Assembly: GCA_041649575.1 (NCBI GenBank)
Contig: JBAZMW010000003.1
Span: forward strand, 1-32,000
Length of the DNA: 32,000 nt
Source: Patescibacteria group bacterium
Lineage (GTDB): Bacteria; Patescibacteriota; Patescibacteriia; 2-01-FULL-39-33
Direction of reading: 5' to 3'
A program made the translations under genes and the position numbers. Below are positions 1-7,513 of the stretch, one piece after another (position 1 is the first letter of the stretch; the number at the start of each line of letters is the position of its first letter). The notes beneath the pieces are model-generated. The model was not told the DNA's origin, ran no database searches, and worked only from the letters and a program-made list of their open reading frames with translations.

Positions 1-125
1 TTCCCGCTGTTCGTCTCGTCGCTTCGCGACGTCGCCGAACAGCGGCTATCTGACGCTGGCGCTTCATTTCGCCAGTCCAAAAGCTGCGCTTTTGTCCTGA
101 CGAAACGACAGATAGCCGCGGCGCA
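1..125 (+). repeat. Conserved 166-bp ORF-less mini-cassette, copy A (first 41 nt cut off by window edge)
   Basis: Identical to positions 809-933, 1480-1604 and 2101-2225. Ends ...CCGCGGCGCA|TTAGGTG. Confidence 0.9.
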
Positions 126-175
126 TTAGGTGAAATCGTGCTAATTTTTAACAAATCAAATAAACCATAAAAACT

Positions 176-586
176 ATGAGAAAAACAACCCTGATTGCCA
201 TCATTGTAATCGCTACAGTTACCATTGGAGGAATTTATGCATGGCAAAGATTGAATATGCCATCAGAACAAAGCAAGTGTACTAAGCAAGGGGGAAATTG
301 GATAACGGGTTCGCCTGAGTATGGCTCAAAATGCATAATCCCATATTCAGATGCGGGGGAAAAATGTACAAGTTCAGAGCAATGTTTAGGTCAATGCGTA
401 ACTAATGTAATAAGCCAACTCGGGAAGGAGGGTACATGTCAAAAAAATAATGACAATCGGGGTTGTTTCAATGCAATAGAAAGCGAGAGGTTTAATTGTT
501 TACTGGATGATATAATGGTTAATTGTGATAGTAAACATTGGGAAACCATGTGCGACTCACTTAAAGGAAAAGAATTCTTTGAATAA
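176..586 (+). CDS. Small secreted/membrane-anchored Cys-rich protein (136 aa), cassette 1 cargo
   Basis: N-terminal hydrophobic helix (LIAIIVIATVTIGGIYAW) followed by a 12-Cys domain. It is the only long ORF in the cassette. Confidence 0.7.
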   Translation: MRKTTLIAIIVIATVTIGGIYAWQRLNMPSEQSKCTKQGGNWITGSPEYGSKCIIPYSDAGEKCTSSEQCLGQCVTNVISQLGKEGTCQKNNDNRGCFNAIESERFNCLLDDIMVNCDSKHWETMCDSLKGKEFFE

Positions 587-602
587 AAATTAGCACGACT
601 AT

Positions 603-773
603 CACCTAACATGTTTTATACGGTTGCGCCCCTCGGCTCGCTCTCTGAAATTTAACGGGACACCGCTTCGCTCGGGGCTCCACCTAACTTTTGTCCTCGC
701 TTATGCGGTGACCTCCGGTCAATTGTACCGCAACGCTCGGAACAAAAGTTCGTATAAAACGATAACGTTCAGC
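603..773 (+). other. attC-like recombination site of cassette 1 (variable class, AAC...GTT)
   Basis: Inverse core CACCTAAC (603-610) followed by ATGTTTTATACGG. The right side is CGTATAAAACGATAAC-GTTCAGC, with the G at 767. TTTTATACG and CGTATAAAA are complementary. Confidence 0.55.
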
Positions 774-933
774 GACATCGCTTCGCTCTGTCGCTGAATG
801 CGCCGCGGTTCCCGCTGTTCGTCTCGTCGCTTCGCGACGTCGCCGAACAGCGGCTATCTGACGCTGGCGCTTCATTTCGCCAGTCCAAAAGCTGCGCTTT
901 TGTCCTGACGAAACGACAGATAGCCGCGGCGCA
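768..933 (+). repeat. Conserved 166-bp ORF-less mini-cassette, copy B
   Basis: Starts TTCAGCGACA directly after the G of attC-like site 1 and ends GCGCA before TTAGTAGC. It contains its own inverse core TGTCGCTGAAT (789-799), complementary to its first 10 nt. Confidence 0.9.
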
Positions 934-994
934 TTAGTAGCCATATTGCTTTTTACAAAATATTTTTAGGGGTTGAAAAAAAAGGAGAATAACC

Positions 995-1204
995 ATGAAA
1001 CGTATTGATGTACTTTGCGAATTGCCATTTGCTGGATTTTTAATCTTTGTTGGGTTGACTATCCTTGCAGGCAGCGGCATATACGCGATGACAGCCATGT
1101 CTTTTGCTGGCCGCTGTATCGGCTATGCCGGATGTATTTGCGGATTTGTATTGGTGTTCTTACCATTCTTGGTCTTAAGCTGGAAGTTACACCGTAACCC
1201 ATAA
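995..1204 (+). CDS. Small two-TM membrane protein (69 aa), cassette 2 cargo
   Basis: GGAG 7 nt upstream of the ATG and two hydrophobic segments. Preferred over the overlapping frame 1015..1197. Confidence 0.6.
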   Translation: MKRIDVLCELPFAGFLIFVGLTILAGSGIYAMTAMSFAGRCIGYAGCICGFVLVFLPFLVLSWKLHRNP

Positions 1205-1302
1205 ATGGCAAAACGATTCAAGGGAAGGAATGATTTGCTGTTCCTTCCCCACCCCCTAAAAATATTTTGAATGGAAAAATGATATAATATAAAAGCAATA
1301 CA

Positions 1303-1444
1303 GCTACTAACACGTTTTATAAGGCTCGCCCATTACTAAGATAATCAGCTCGCGGACATTGCTCGTTCGCTTACGTGTTTGGCTCCGCGCATATTTTACC
1401 ACCACGCGAACTTCGCAACGTCTTATAAAACGATAACGTTCAGC
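1303..1444 (+). other. attC-like recombination site of cassette 2 (variable class)
   Basis: GCTACTAAC (1303-1311) followed by ACGTTTTATAAG. The right side is CTTATAAAACGATAAC-GTTCAGC, with the G at 1438. It shares the internal motif GCTCCGCGCAYATTTTACCACCACG with site 3. Confidence 0.55.
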
Positions 1445-1604
1445 GACATCGCTTCGCTCTGTCGCTGAATGCGCCGCGGTTCCCGCTGTTCGTCTCGTCG
1501 CTTCGCGACGTCGCCGAACAGCGGCTATCTGACGCTGGCGCTTCATTTCGCCAGTCCAAAAGCTGCGCTTTTGTCCTGACGAAACGACAGATAGCCGCGG
1601 CGCA
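1439..1604 (+). repeat. Conserved 166-bp ORF-less mini-cassette, copy C
   Basis: Identical to copy B by direct comparison. Confidence 0.9.
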
Positions 1605-1650
1605 TTAAGTGAAATTTGCTATTTTATTAAAATCTAAATAATAAACCGCT

Positions 1651-1893
1651 ATGAAAAAAACAATCATAGTAATAGTGGCAGTAATTCTCATAATTATTAT
1701 AACCTTTTTGGGCTACTGGTTTTTTCTGAGGAAAAACTGCAATCAATTTTCAGGTAATTTTTCCTGGGCATGGGGTCCAAACCTTGTTTCTAAATGCGAA
1801 AATGCCGGCTGTAAAACCAATATTAAAAACTGCTCAGGAAGTCAAGATGCGCCAGATAGTGTTATGTGCTATTTAGAATGCACCTCCAAATAA
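1651..1893 (+). CDS. Small secreted/membrane-anchored Cys-rich protein (80 aa), cassette 3 cargo
   Basis: N-terminal TM (IIVIVAVILIIIITFLGYWFF) and 6 Cys. Shares a C-x2-3-Q-x-x-G-N-[WF]...S-K-C block with the cassette 1 protein. Confidence 0.65.
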   Translation: MKKTIIVIVAVILIIIITFLGYWFFLRKNCNQFSGNFSWAWGPNLVSKCENAGCKTNIKNCSGSQDAPDSVMCYLECTSK

Positions 1894-1903
1894 AATAGCA
1901 AAC

Positions 1904-2065
1904 TTCATTTAACACGGTTTATGTGGTTCATCCGACACTTCCCATATTAAGCCGAGACATCGGTCGGATTCACCTAAATCGCTTGTCGTCTTAGGTGGTG
2001 GCGCTCCGCGCACATTTTACCACCACGACGACTGCGCGACTTCACATAAACCGGTAACGTTCAGC
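1904..2065 (+). other. attC-like recombination site of cassette 3 (variable class)
   Basis: TTCATTTAAC (1904-1913) followed by ACGGTTTATGTG. The right side is CACATAAACCGGTAAC-GTTCAGC, with the G at 2059. There is a 10-bp L-box pairing plus internal hairpins. Confidence 0.55.
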
Positions 2066-2225
2066 GACATCGCTCCGCTCTGTCGCTGAATGCGCCGCGG
2101 TTCCCGCTGTTCGTCTCGTCGCTTCGCGACGTCGCCGAACAGCGGCTATCTGACGCTGGCGCTTCATTTCGCCAGTCCAAAAGCTGCGCTTTTGTCCTGA
2201 CGAAACGACAGATAGCCGCGGCGCA
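2060..2225 (+). repeat. Conserved 166-bp ORF-less mini-cassette, copy D
   Basis: Identical to copy B except one T>C at 2075, inside the 11-nt loop of the first hairpin. Confidence 0.9.
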
Positions 2226-2282
2226 TTATCATAAAATAGTAAAAAACATTTTCTTTTAGACAATAATTTTGGTAATTTTACT

Positions 2283-2317
2283 AAAAAACCCCAGGCCAAG
2301 TGCGATACTTGGCCTGG
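2283..2317 (-). terminator. Rho-independent terminator of the cassette 4 reverse unit
   Basis: CCAGGCCAAG / CTTGGCCTGG 10-bp stem with a 7-nt loop, followed on the minus strand by GGTTTTTT. Confidence 0.75.
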
Positions 2318-2353
2318 TTGAAACAGGCAGATACTCGTTGCGGGCGGTGTTCA

Positions 2354-2647
2354 CTATAGGGGGACGGGAACGAGACGCGGGTCCCGCATCTTTTCCCCAA
2401 TCGCCAGACAGAGCCGCGTTAGTGCTTCCGAGAGTTGGACGCCAGGGCGTTGAGTCAGTGATCCGGTGATTGCTTTTACTCCGCCGACGGTTATTCCCGA
2501 CATGAGCGGAGTTACCCTCCTCGCCCACTTCTTACGGAAAGCGAGAAAGAATGCTCCCTGGTTTTCCGGCGCTGGCATTTGCTGATATATCTCGACCCAG
2601 TCACCGCAGAAGCCCAGTTGAAAAACACGCCTGAATCTACGTTGCAT
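2354..2647 (-). CDS. Hypothetical 97-aa protein, reverse-oriented GC-rich cargo of cassette 4 (could instead be a structured RNA)
   Basis: AGGAGGTGG lies 7 nt before the second in-frame ATG (2647). A strong terminator lies 37 nt after the stop. I recognise no family. Confidence 0.4.
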   Translation of the reverse strand: MQRRFRRVFQLGFCGDWVEIYQQMPAPENQGAFFLAFRKKWARRVTPLMSGITVGGVKAITGSLTQRPGVQLSEALTRLCLAIGEKMRDPRLVPVPL

Positions 2648-2798
2648 TATTAAACCACCTCCTCTCATAGCCAGTAAACCACCAAAAACAATTGAGAAAT
2701 CCTATCAACCATGATAAGATTCATATACGAAAGAACAAAAATTATCCTATATTTAATTCATTTAAAAGTCAAGGGCGGATTTCTCGTTTTTACTACAT

Positions 2799-2936
2799 CC
2801 GACAACACGGTTTAGACATAATCGCTTGGTCGCTTGCGCGATTGACTCCCGCCCCCACTAACGCTTCGGCTGGCAGGCCGTCAAATTATATCGCGCCGCT
2901 TCCGGCGCGACTTCACCTAAAACGGTGACGTTGGGC
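2799..2936 (+). other. attC-like recombination site of cassette 4 (variable class, not followed by the mini-cassette)
   Basis: CCGACAAC (2799-2806) followed by ACGGTTTAGAC. The right side is CACCTAAAACGGTGAC-GTTGGGC, with the G at 2930. GTTGGGC fits GTTRRRY. Sequence after GTT diverges from the other sites, which defines the junction. Confidence 0.55.
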
Positions 2937-2979
2937 AAAACTGAAAAAACTTTTAAATTTATTTTGTTTTGATTTCTGT

Positions 2980-3492
2980 ATGATAAAGATAAGAAAACAT
3001 TTAGAAAAAGATATTCCCTACCGCGTCAAGTGGTTAAGTAATCCCAGTGCCAACAAATTCATTGGTGATGAAATAGGGCAAAAAACAAATCTGCAAAAAG
3101 AAAAGAGGTGGTTTGCTAATTATAAAAAAGCTAAGAACAAAAAGTTTTTTACTATTTGTGATAATTTTAAGCCAATCGGGTTTATGGGGTTATCAAACAT
3201 TAATAAGGCGAATAAAAATGCAGATTTGTTTATTGCTATCGGTGAAGACGACTATCGCGGCAAGGGAATCGGAAAAATCGCCATGGGATGGATAATTGAT
3301 TATGGATTTAAAAAATTAAAACTTCATAAGATCAACTTGGGTGTTATTAAAAATAATGTTCCGGCAGTAAATTTATATAAATCTTTTGGATTTGTCATTG
3401 AAGGTGAAATGAAAGATGAAGTTCTTTACAGAGGGAGATTTTATAATTTTTTATCCATGGCGATTTTTAATAGAAATCAAAACAAAAAATAA
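2980..3492 (+). CDS. GNAT-family N-acetyltransferase, cassette 5 cargo
   Basis: YRGKGIGK acetyl-CoA binding motif (R-x-x-G-x-G), an NxxAxxLYxxxGF-like segment, and typical 170-aa size. Confidence 0.8.
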   Translation: MIKIRKHLEKDIPYRVKWLSNPSANKFIGDEIGQKTNLQKEKRWFANYKKAKNKKFFTICDNFKPIGFMGLSNINKANKNADLFIAIGEDDYRGKGIGKIAMGWIIDYGFKKLKLHKINLGVIKNNVPAVNLYKSFGFVIEGEMKDEVLYRGRFYNFLSMAIFNRNQNKK

Positions 3493-3802
3493 GGAATCAG
3501 ACGCGATAATAAATAATAAAATCTATAAAAAAACAACAACTGCCTTAATAGTTATTCTCATCCTGGTTTTGATATATTTAGCAATACCGAAGCCATATTC
3601 ACTATCTACCAACATAAAATCTTGCGTTGATTCAAAGATTATTTCTGCGGCATATCTCAACCAAGATTCAGGCTGGTGTGCTGGGATAGTTTACCCGTCT
3701 AACAGAGACGAAATATGGCGTAATCCAATATGTACAATGTCTATAAAAGGCTGGGATTGCTTTGGTTATAAATTCTTTAAAAAAACTTCAATGGCTTTAT
3801 AA
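3416..3802 (+). CDS. Small membrane-anchored Cys-containing protein (start uncertain; overlaps GNAT 3' end by 77 nt)
   Basis: TM helix ALIVILILVLIYLAI and 5 Cys. The only ATG in frame is 3416, preceded by AAGGTGA at 3401-3407. No canonical start codon exists after the GNAT stop. Confidence 0.5.
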   Translation: MKFFTEGDFIIFYPWRFLIEIKTKNKESDAIINNKIYKKTTTALIVILILVLIYLAIPKPYSLSTNIKSCVDSKIISAAYLNQDSGWCAGIVYPSNRDEIWRNPICTMSIKGWDCFGYKFFKKTSMAL

Positions 3803-3820
3803 TCTATTATTTATTACAGC

Positions 3821-3840
3821 GCCTAACACGTTTCATTAAC
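3821..3840 (+). other. Half attC-like site (inverse core plus left box only) marking the distal end of the array
   Basis: GCCTAAC-ACGTTTCATT matches the left consensus and is complementary, with 1 mismatch, to the cassette-5 start TTGGGC. I found no convincing right arm or GTT partner downstream. Confidence 0.4.
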
Positions 3841-3850
3841 TCAAATACTT

Positions 3851-4375
3851 ATGACAAAACAAGAAGGGCGGCCTGAAACAACGGAAAAAAAGGACTGTTC
3901 TTTCGAAGAAGGAGTTGAGCAAATAATAGAGCTGGCCAGTTCACTGCTCCTTGCTCAAGATTATGTCGTTGTGGCAATATCCGGGCCTCTCTCCGATGAT
4001 ACGAACGTTGGCAAAACTTTCCTTTCAAATGGCTTGGCCAGAGGATTTGCGCAACGGGGTATCTCTTGTATTGTCACATCAGATGAAGTTTCGCTTAGAA
4101 ACCACGCGTCAATCAAAACCGACAAGGGAGTTATAATTCTTGGTGCCATGGGAAGTCCCAGTAATCATACAAAACCAGAAACAGTGGCACGATATAGGGC
4201 CGGCCGAGATTCGGGCGTGCAAGCCGCGACAAATTCGATCGGGCTGCCCGTCTCCAAGGTTGATATTCATGTCTTTATTTATAGACCAGACAAGCCTGTC
4301 TGTGAGGGAGATCGTCTATATAACGACATAATCATAAAAAATGAAAATGCTATCGACGATCCTGATAAACTATAA
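3851..4375 (+). CDS. Hypothetical protein (174 aa) with degenerate P-loop-like segment
   Basis: Long ORF. AISGPLSDDTNVGKT resembles but does not satisfy Walker A. Confidence 0.55.
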   Translation: MTKQEGRPETTEKKDCSFEEGVEQIIELASSLLLAQDYVVVAISGPLSDDTNVGKTFLSNGLARGFAQRGISCIVTSDEVSLRNHASIKTDKGVIILGAMGSPSNHTKPETVARYRAGRDSGVQAATNSIGLPVSKVDIHVFIYRPDKPVCEGDRLYNDIIIKNENAIDDPDKL

Positions 4376-4453
4376 GAATCACAAAAAAATTGTGGAGGAA
4401 GAATCTCAATAAACATTCTGAATGAGAAAAACAAAGAAATTGAAATCTAAAAA

Positions 4454-4987
4454 ATGAGGCCTCTTTTTACAATTAAAAAAACCAAAGGGAATGGCCGCGG
4501 GGTCTTTGCGCTCACCGATATCAAAAAAGGCAGACACGTCATTAGATGCGATCTGACAAAGCTAAAAACATACTCATTAGAAAAACTGAAGAAGCACCCA
4601 CAGCGCAGGTCCGACCATTGGGACGAGGCAGGGAGAGGCAAGTGGGTTTTGGATTTTTCTCCGGCCTCTTACGTTAACCATTCTTGCGATCCCAATTGCC
4701 TGACAAAATATTATACCTTAAAGAAAAAAGATATTGTGGCCAGGCGAGACATAAAAAGCGGCGAAGAGATGACTGTAGATTATTCGACGGGAGCCATCTA
4801 CGGATTCAACAAAAAATCTCACATCACCGCTGGCGCTGGAATTATGAAGTGCCGCTGCAACAGCAAAAAATGCAGAAAAATTATTACGGATGACTTTTTT
4901 GAGCTGCCTAAAGGTTTGCAAAGAGAATATTTTAAGAACTTACCGCCTTCGATTAAAAGAAAATTTGTAAAGAGACCAAAAAGATAA
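4454..4987 (+). CDS. SET-domain protein (putative protein-lysine methyltransferase)
   Basis: NHSCDPNC motif, EEMTVDY motif, and a post-SET-like CRCNSKKC Cys cluster. Confidence 0.8.
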   Translation: MRPLFTIKKTKGNGRGVFALTDIKKGRHVIRCDLTKLKTYSLEKLKKHPQRRSDHWDEAGRGKWVLDFSPASYVNHSCDPNCLTKYYTLKKKDIVARRDIKSGEEMTVDYSTGAIYGFNKKSHITAGAGIMKCRCNSKKCRKIITDDFFELPKGLQREYFKNLPPSIKRKFVKRPKR

Positions 4988-5982: not shown

Positions 5983-5983
5983 G

Positions 5984-6035
5984 TAGCGTATGGCGTATGG
6001 CATATAGCATATAGCATATGGCATATAGCGTATAG
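5984..6035 (+). repeat. Seven tandem heptads (N-TATRGC) after nusG
   Basis: gTATGGC gTATGGC aTATAGC aTATAGC aTATGGC aTATAGC gTATAG. Confidence 0.8.
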
Positions 6036-6167: not shown

Positions 6168-6195
6168 CCTATAAACTATAAGCCATAAGCCATAA
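6168..6195 (-). repeat. Four tandem heptads of the same N-TATRGC family in inverted orientation, just upstream of rplK
   Basis: Forward sequence is cctataa actataa gccataa gccataa. The reverse complement gives TTATGGC/TTATAGN units. Confidence 0.7.
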
Positions 6196-6205
6196 ACTGA
6201 AATGT

Positions 6206-7475: not shown

Positions 7476-7497
7476 CTGGTGGCTAATGGCTTATAGA
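7470..7497 (+). repeat. Four N-NNTRGC heptads overlapping the rplA stop codon
   Basis: gTATAGC tGGTGGC tAATGGC tTATAGa. Confidence 0.55.
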
Positions 7498-7513
7498 AAA
7501 ATTTGAGTTTTAT

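Follow-up and report, generated by a model that had tools for sequence, protein, structure and literature searches.

The 32,000-nucleotide stretch analyzed here (the window) is taken from a Patescibacteria group bacterium (GenBank assembly GCA_041649575.1, contig JBAZMW010000003.1, positions 1 to 32,000 of the forward strand). It opens within a co-oriented cassette array that carries four copies of a 166-bp element without an open reading frame (ORF), here called E. E is probably a gene-less integron cassette consisting of little more than its recombination site, and its family was probably spread by an integron-type recombinase. Read from the DNA, E represents a real and reproducible family of apparently attC-only 'empty' cassettes with a natural ATT/AAT site, located at most junctions of two diverged arrays and presumably mobilized. 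Among gene-less cassettes, a known class, it is an unusual variant, a near-bare recombination site with ATT in place of the near-universal GTT.

Results

Copies and boundaries of E

A repeat finder and alignment placed four copies of E on the plus strand. Copy a (1-125) is cut by the window edge and corresponds to E positions 42-166, copy b (768-933) is complete at 166 bp with no ORF, and copy c (1439-1604) is identical to copy b. Copy d (2060-2225) carries a T>C at 2075, which is the only difference among the copies in the window. This substitution lies in the loop of hairpin 1, where it changes GAA to GGA on the bottom strand and keeps the GNA triloop form. The flanks of the copies are divergent in the alignment, with a cargo attC on the left and cassette starts on the right. 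The original prediction, made by a model from the letters alone, had listed the four copies with these coordinates, their near-identity and the strong divergence of the neighboring sites, and the alignment agrees with it on each count. The pattern GAATGCGCCGCGG-N100-130-CCGCGGCGCATT has 3 matches in the window compared to 0.00 expected from shuffles.

E starts directly after the last base of a cargo attC (…TAACG|TT, with G as the last base) and ends as …GCGCA|TT, where TT belongs to the next cassette. The junction at 2930|2931 (GGTGACG|TTGGGC) has no E and is an 'empty' junction with cassette C5 joined directly to the site on its left, as had been proposed for the fourth site of the array. The E junctions were recovered at 100% identity in ENA ERZ27247363 (contigs L001, L009, and L011) and Logan SRR8542065 (L010 and L012). 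L011 also has the T>C that is private to copy d, and L001 carries the truncated copy a 12 nt further left, matching a full copy.

E has cassette-type ends and an attC-like fold

The anatomy of E is most easily followed in copy b, with all features on the plus strand. Hairpin 1 (768-798) consists of arm TTCAGCGACA (768-777), an 11-nt linker TCGCTTCGCTC (778-788), and arm TGTCGCTGAA (789-798), and it combines an R'-type start with an R''-type inverse core. The AAT triplet (797-799) occupies the position of AAC in an R'' box. The 5' half of the outer, L-type stem (GCGCCGCGG, 800-808) pairs with 924-932 and the stem encloses a three-way junction. Arm 1 of this junction (812-853, bottom-strand tip GCGAAGC) is conserved in a variant called E2, and arm 2 (854-923, bottom-strand tip GCGCAGC) is an unrelated hairpin in E2 and is absent from two 45-bp derivatives, the minis. 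The 3' half of the outer stem (CCGCGGCGC) and the terminal A occupy 924-933, and the crossover A|TT falls between 933 and 934. The R-type arm is formed by TGTCGCTGAAT / ATTCAGCGACA, and the L''/L' box GCGCCGCGG / CCGCGGCGC closes the two-armed junction, as the L''/L' boxes of the cargo attCs of the same array do theirs. The start, the 11 nt of content, the inverse core, and the GCGCA|TT end are all as first described.

Complementarity between the ends of a cassette and its inner AAC sequence is the circular-permutation signature of cassettes. Each of the cargo cassettes C1-C3 shows it: the final G, read on into the cassette's first bases, is the complement of a stretch that closes with that cassette's AAC. 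The inverse core of E, TGTCGCTGAAT, is the exact complement of A+TTCAGCGACA, which is the element's own last base plus its own start, and forms an 11-nt perfect run. E2 keeps this relation by a compensatory change. Circularly permuted E folds into a perfect 20-bp stem, the structure that had been expected from joining the two ends. The proposal that E behaves as its own cassette is supported by these relations and by the co-oriented array with boundaries at N|TT for all E-type copies.

The fold of E was compared with shuffles and gave z = -7.7 on the plus strand and z = -10.7 on the minus strand. Calculations with DNA parameters give a bottom strand that is more stable than the top strand for both E (-67.1 versus -60.2 kcal/mol) and E2 (-59.3 versus -54.5 kcal/mol). 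C-GNA-G mini-hairpins are found on the bottom strand in the hairpin-1 linker and at both arm tips of E and E2 (GCGAAGC, GCGCAGC, GCGGAGC, and CCGGAGG), and also at some cargo attC tips. GNA triloops closed by C:G, including GAA, number 10 on the minus strand versus 1 on the plus strand across the array. In published attC sites the bottom strand is more stable by a mean of 2.12 kcal/mol (7.6%) and carries a GAA tip (PMC5027507). Because bottom-strand stability and GAA tips are published attC properties, the bias in E argues for a role as single-stranded DNA as in attC recombination and disfavors selection on the structure of a sense mRNA.

A variant family in other arrays

The minus strand of E is an open frame, and its translation was used as a query in protein databases. 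The search matched pseudo-ORFs on JGI contigs L014, L015, L016, and L017, and ENA contig L018 was reached through a cassette protein. These five metagenome contigs carry E2, a 148-bp variant of E. Hairpin 1 of E2 differs from that of E by one compensatory pair, G:C>A:T (TTCAGCAACA / TGTTGCTGAA), and no difference is seen in the linker, AAT, outer stem, and terminal A. Arm 1 is ~90% identical to that of E and arm 2 is replaced by a non-homologous hairpin. The single-sided substitutions that mark E2 and a further form, E2', produce an A.C mismatch on the top strand and a G.T wobble on the bottom strand. Two 45-bp minis consist only of hairpin 1 plus GCGCCGCGG[C/T]GCA, and one of them matches what would be left after a deletion mediated by the GCCGCGG direct repeats that belong to the outer stem.

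The combined order of L018 and L015 is E2-K-J-E2-A-E2-B-E2-C-D-E2-F-mini-G-mini-H-E2'-I. An E-type element precedes 4/5 cassettes in the window and 8/10 in this E2 array, so the alternation of element and cargo that had been called strict is frequent but is not strict in related arrays. All 16 E-type copies lie in one orientation, each preceded by the …AC[G/A] that ends a cargo attC and followed by the TT[A/G] that opens a cassette. The proposed check of whether every copy sits at an attC-like G|TT junction thus found all of them at an attC end, with some of these ends reading …ACA|. E-type copies outside the arrays were absent from window positions 5001-32000 (27 kb) and from L015 1-6100, which includes the mur operon; copies scattered at unrelated sites with target duplications, the pattern named beforehand as pointing to a miniature inverted-repeat transposable element (MITE), were thus not seen there.

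The neighbors of the element were compared between copies and samples. L015 and L016 diverge exactly at the left edge of an E2, with cassette B in one and cassette X in the other. The attCs of cassettes F and J are 95% identical and are followed by a mini (F) or a full E2 (J) and by different downstream cassettes. The same E2 is also found before unrelated genes. Because the neighbors on both sides vary, E is an independent unit and not the leader or trailer of one gene family. A fixed 5' untranslated region of one gene family outside any array, named beforehand as a refuting pattern, was not seen in these comparisons, and a conserved leader for the downstream ORF is disfavored.

The E family is rare or else seldom called as an ORF, and it is either confined to the present lineage or invisible to protein-based searches. 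When the translated element was run with HMMER in a full scan against 1.84 billion representative proteins, it returned only the pseudo-ORFs of the window and of E2. Seven matches to an exact 20-mer of E were obtained in 185,579 species genomes, all of them by chance in GC-rich coding DNA and lacking the remainder of E. Plasmids and phages had no BLASTN match to E, and the gapped stem pattern found nothing in viral contigs and one unrelated GC-rich palindrome in JGI metagenome contigs (L013). This near-perfect palindrome of ~240 nt (Ga0070685_10024772, L013 1-250) opens an unrelated GC-rich contig and contains GAATGCGCCGCGGCGCATTC twice by chance. The hosts of the E and E2 arrays appear from their gene content to be small-genome uncultured bacteria, and no literature on integrons in such bacteria was found.

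Several further features of the E2 contigs were recorded. L017 (2379 bp) has a 127-nt terminal overlap that gives an apparent circle. An excised J-E2-K circle was considered and rejected, as the linear order E2-K-J-E2-A in L018 identifies a repeat-induced assembly cycle. Cassettes F (L015 10110-9119) and J (L018 874-2243; found in L017 and L018) encode unrelated ORFs of 254 and 382 aa and have in common a 5' leader (60 nt, 80% identity) and a 3' trailer plus attC (144 nt, 95% identity). A common frame holds different cargo in the two, and a leader hairpin has compensatory changes. In L015 cassettes D (11247-10259) and G (9073-7685), both on the minus strand, the ORF lies between the L'' and L' halves, inside the attC. 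It is bracketed by inverted repeats of ~20 nt and has the reverse orientation in D. A GC-rich, structured-looking stretch of ~200 nt (L015 6150-5900, minus strand) sits between murC and the final attC of the E2 array, and it had no Rfam or tRNA/tmRNA match.

The crossover triplet of E is ATT

The triplets of E and E2 are AAT/ATT, not AAC/GTT. The bottom-strand R' of E is GCTGAAT, and the conserved AAC/GTT with a bottom-strand R' of the form RYYYAAC is not present. The array had been described as having two junction types, G|TT and A|TT. Both are present, but A|TT is also found at cargo attCs: 3/11 distinct cargo attCs upstream of E-type elements end in …ACA|, and as their R'' is AAC the bottom strand has a T.G wobble there. 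A|TT is no mark of E alone, and because some cargo attCs end in A, the G/A divide is no clean divide between E and cargo. The series C:G, T.G, T:A looks like a compensatory pathway. A separate A|TT junction was noted in L010 440-500 (Logan SRR8542065), where the left part of attC_3 is joined to another right part, …GCGCAACTTCGAACAGACCGGTAACA|TTAGTAGCCATAAT. This is an …AACA|TT junction on a cargo-type site without E, and a VanZ-like gene is next. The L010 junction may be another array end or strain, or a chimeric k=31 contig.

Recombination between two ATT sites by IntI1 proceeds at the wild-type rate, and recombination between ATT and GTT partners is ~3 x 10^-3 of wild type, about 300-fold less (PMC2811028, Table 4). 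By this comparison two E sites would be much better recombination partners than an E site and a G-type cargo site. Poor ATT x GTT exchange could explain the retention of E once inserted, the homogenized copies, and the array differences at E boundaries.

The cassette array in the window

The array (~1-3860) contains five cargo cassettes on the plus strand. C1 (126-767) has a 136-aa Cys-rich ORF (176-586) and an attC at 603-767 with R'' ...CACCTAAC, L'' GTTTTATAC, L' GTATAAAAC, and the end GATAACG|. C2 (934-1438) has a 69-aa membrane ORF (995-1204) and an attC at 1304-1438, and C3 (1605-2059) has an 80-aa ORF (1651-1893) and an attC at 1906-2059. C4 (2226-2930) has a 104-aa ORF on the minus strand (2354-2668) and an attC at 2800-2930, and C5 follows directly at the junction without E. 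C5 (2931-3860) encodes a GNAT acetyltransferase (2980-3492) and a second ORF (3416-3802) and ends the array. The cargo attCs share a layout of AAC, a 1-2-nt spacer, an L'' box of 9-11 bp, a branched interior, a complementary L', a 5-6-nt spacer, and G|TT. The sequence GCGCCTAACACGTTTCATTAAC near 3820-3860 resembles the R''/L'' left half of an attC and is complementary to the C5 start TTGGGC; there is no matching right half, and the site appears to be a truncated terminal attC-like site at the end of the array.

The complementarity of the cargo cassettes extends beyond the R box. The first 20-40 nt of each cargo cassette are complementary to a stretch just upstream of its own R'' AAC (126-150 with 586-610, 934-972 with 1250-1311, and 1605-1630 with 1888-1913), and the ORF is therefore bracketed by a long inverted repeat. 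The layout of E is that of the extended R box with the 11-nt linker in place of the ORF.

Two ORFs (3851-4987) follow the array, and housekeeping genes lie 3' of it, with secE-nusG-rplK-rplA from 5152 and then dnaA, gatB, miaA, and dnaE. Short tandem motifs (GCATATAG / GCGTATGG; ATAAGCC) are found in the intergenic regions near nusG, rplK, and rplA (5983-6035, 6170-6200, and 7476-7500).

Discussion

The arrangement of E suggests how a cassette of this kind may have spread. A circular E would be inserted and excised by the integron-type tyrosine recombinase of the array through exchange of the bottom strand at N|TT. Insertion and excision at this point would place the start of E after the last base of the cargo attC and its end one base before the next TT. 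The circle, or a tandem junction of two copies, would read ...GATAGCCGCGGCGCA|TTCAGCGACATCGC, and the empty junction attC_1|C2 without E would read …CGATAACG|TTAGTAGCC. Copies within one array would stay identical through recurrent rounds of excision and re-insertion or through conversion of one copy by another, and different arrays would come to hold different variants, E in the window array and E2 with the 45-bp minis elsewhere. With an A:T first-position pair on both halves and not G:C, E should be hard to remove between G-type cassettes if the enzyme behaves like IntI1. Exchange between two copies of E would move or delete blocks of cargo plus E, and E may accumulate at most junctions by this route.

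A number of observations weigh against this interpretation. The unpaired central spacer of attC sites is missing from E, with zero spacing on both sides, and there is no extrahelical base within its stem. Such features matter for the substrates of IntI1 and VchIntIA; deletion of the extrahelical bases reduced VCR2 recombination 50-fold (PMC5027507). Three unpaired bases (GAA in E, GCA in E2) are located at the junction, 3' on the bottom strand and 10 bp away from the point of cleavage. The stem of E reads alike on both strands, so that only the arms could decide which strand is used, yet the copies all have one orientation. E is accordingly described as working like an attC, as two defining features were tested and not found. 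The covariation between E and E2 consists of one compensatory pair in two lineages, and 31/500 shuffles reach its score. If ATT x GTT exchange is as poor as for IntI1, the insertion of E beside G-type attCs should also be rare. Neither a circular form nor an empty/occupied polymorphism of one junction was found. Pfam detected no integron integrase or other tyrosine recombinase among the ORFs of the window, which starts inside the array. No integrase or attI is visible in the window or any related locus; the related contigs end in E2 repeats, and a walk left along the E2 array toward the integrase gained only cassettes K and J. The arrays could be integrase-less attC clusters.

A broader reading joins several of these points and is speculative and rather doubtful. 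In this reading the arrays would hold two interleaved recombination classes that, like the engineered IntI1 substrates, barely cross-react, an A-type (E, E2, and the minority of cargo attCs with G->A) and a G-type (most cargo attCs). The attC-only element would be a natural specificity switch that cuts an array into blocks, locks single cassettes, and homogenizes itself, and the empty frame, made up of start arm, short linker, inverse core, and attC, might be a stage in how cassettes arise and are lost, as an acceptor or a remnant. Other cassettes in the arrays with common frames and unrelated ORFs are taken as supporting the acceptor/remnant idea.

The alternative explanations of E differ in how well they fit the data. 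One that can be entertained tentatively is that E was spread by an integrase but is selected as a structural module, either a lock on cassettes or an insulator or mRNA-end stabilizer between them. In the lock version hairpin 1 would tie up two boxes, the R'' of E and the R' (bottom strand TGTCGCTGAA|C) of the cargo attC that lies upstream, and would damp cassette excision. The minimum-energy fold of integrated E pairs both T's of the upstream crossover within hairpin 1, and hairpin 1, the 11-nt linker, and the outer stem are kept across E, E2, and the minis, where the arms vary or are lost. The high occupancy of junctions in two diverged arrays is also consistent with selection but is equally expected of a selfish element. 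The strand bias is toward the bottom strand, which is antisense to the cassette ORFs and speaks against a structure in the sense mRNA. A promoter or terminator cassette was rejected because no sigma-70-like site recurs in E and there is no intrinsic-terminator signature. A structural role is possible and is compatible with, not exclusive of, the gene-less cassette model.

It is unlikely that E is a non-autonomous transposable element that homes to ...ACG|TT by means of a non-integrase enzyme, whether MITE-like, PATE-like, related to repetitive extragenic palindromic (REP) sequences, or derived from an attC-targeting insertion sequence (IS) such as IS1111-attC. In favor of this, E is a short non-coding repeat with strong structure and several copies, the TT found on each side can be read as a 2-bp duplication, and parasites that target attC are known (IS1111-attC and group IIC-attC introns). 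The flanking TT is equally a cassette boundary, however, and copies are restricted to the arrays. There are no terminal inverted repeats, as TTCAGCGACA... and ...CCGCGGCGCA are not inverted copies of each other, and no transposase, RAYT, or DEDD gene was found in the window. An autonomous partner with E ends and a transposase was not found in the window or the loci, and a translated search of protein libraries gave nothing further. Rfam 15 covariance models had no match to the window or loci at gathering score, group II intron or other, and the best sub-threshold E-value was 2.2 in a scan at E<=10. An IS110/IS1111 mini-element guided by a bridge or seek RNA was rejected because the flanks share only AC[G/A] and TT[A/G] (3 + 3 nt), too little for RNA-guided targeting. 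An IS200/IS605-type PATE that targets TAACG was rejected because the copies lie solely at attC ends and E2 follows ATACG, AAACG, and GGACA. The complementarity between the joined ends and the inverse core, kept in E2 by compensatory change, is a signature of integron cassettes and has no role in these transposition mechanisms.

It is also improbable that E is a dependent part, be it an invariable 5' leader or the second half of a fixed 3' end with two sites, that is always co-mobilized with one cargo neighbor. By analogy with IntI1, G-type x G-type exchange would excise E plus the downstream cargo and E x E exchange would excise cargo plus E, and the block E2-C-D-E2-F is common to L015 and L016. 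Cargo attCs nevertheless serve as boundaries without E at 2930|2931 in the window, at C|D in L015, and at K|J in L017 and L018. Neither the left nor the right partnership is fixed, as the near-identical attCs of F and J precede different E forms and different cassettes, and the two-site unit put forward in the original prediction is disfavored as a fixed arrangement for this reason. Assembly duplication or collapse can be dismissed: short-read contigs do end inside E (L001, L009, L011, and L014) and L017 closes on itself via E2, but the junctions recur in independent assemblies, with unique sequence flanking each copy on either side and 100% identity across three assemblies from different assemblers and samples, the substitution private to copy d recurs in L011, and a diverged variant has the same arrangement in five other contigs (L014-L018), and an artifact is therefore excluded as the source of the identical copies.

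The closest described class to E is the gene-less cassettes (PMC11014356, PMC8876359). ORF-less or gene-less examples include the promoter cassettes of the Vibrio superintegron, ORF-less cassettes of Treponema, and small RNA (sRNA) cassettes of Xanthomonas (PMC11014356, PMC6557892, PMC8876359). Like these, E is bounded by integron crossovers, has its own attC-type site and no protein gene, and is co-oriented with its array. Gene-less cassettes carry a non-coding body, with promoter or sRNA activity for several, and a classical attC, whereas E has just the 11-nt linker. E also differs in its identical copies at most junctions, its AAT/ATT triplet, and the lack of a recurring promoter consensus.

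E resembles canonical attC sites (59-base elements and Vibrio cholerae repeats, VCRs) in being an imperfect palindrome with N|TT, paired R and L boxes, a variable terminal structure, and a bottom strand that is the more stable of the two and carries the purine-rich (GAA) loop tips. Unlike them, it has AAT/ATT, no central spacer, no extrahelical base in the stem, a strand-symmetric stem, and a 45-bp derivative without terminal structure. The state of E and E2, with G>A at the first position of the triplet and the complementary change on the other half, is that of the engineered ATT cleavage-site mutants of attCaadA7 and attI1 that Frumerie et al. tested with IntI1 in 2010 (PMC2811028). Those mutants are laboratory constructs, whereas E is a natural site in an unrelated host and is known here from its sequence.

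IS1111-attC and group IIC-attC introns also occupy the attC sites of arrays in one orientation. Each of these parasites brings an enzyme of its own, a DEDD transposase or a reverse transcriptase with a ribozyme, but E encodes none, has no intron domains, and has cassette-type ends. E shares with REP/BIME, REPIN, and MITE sequences its short length, strong folding, lack of coding capacity, and homogeneous copies within a genome. Those elements are dispersed between genes and E-type elements are seen only at cassette junctions.

Integron recombination is thought to need a nearly invariant GTT/AAC triplet as well as the unpaired parts of the attC hairpin. E, a natural ATT/AAT site that is present in several copies, is maintained in evolution, and has no central spacer, nevertheless shows textbook cassette boundaries. 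An attC-only cassette that saturates the junctions of an array is a candidate parasite of integrons, and E together with the cassettes that share a frame is a lead on the unsolved origin of cassette attC sites. If the host integrase moves E, the single-nucleotide 'docking' rule derived from IntI1 mutants would gain a natural counterpart, and arrays could hold orthogonal classes of sites that govern which cassettes excise alone.

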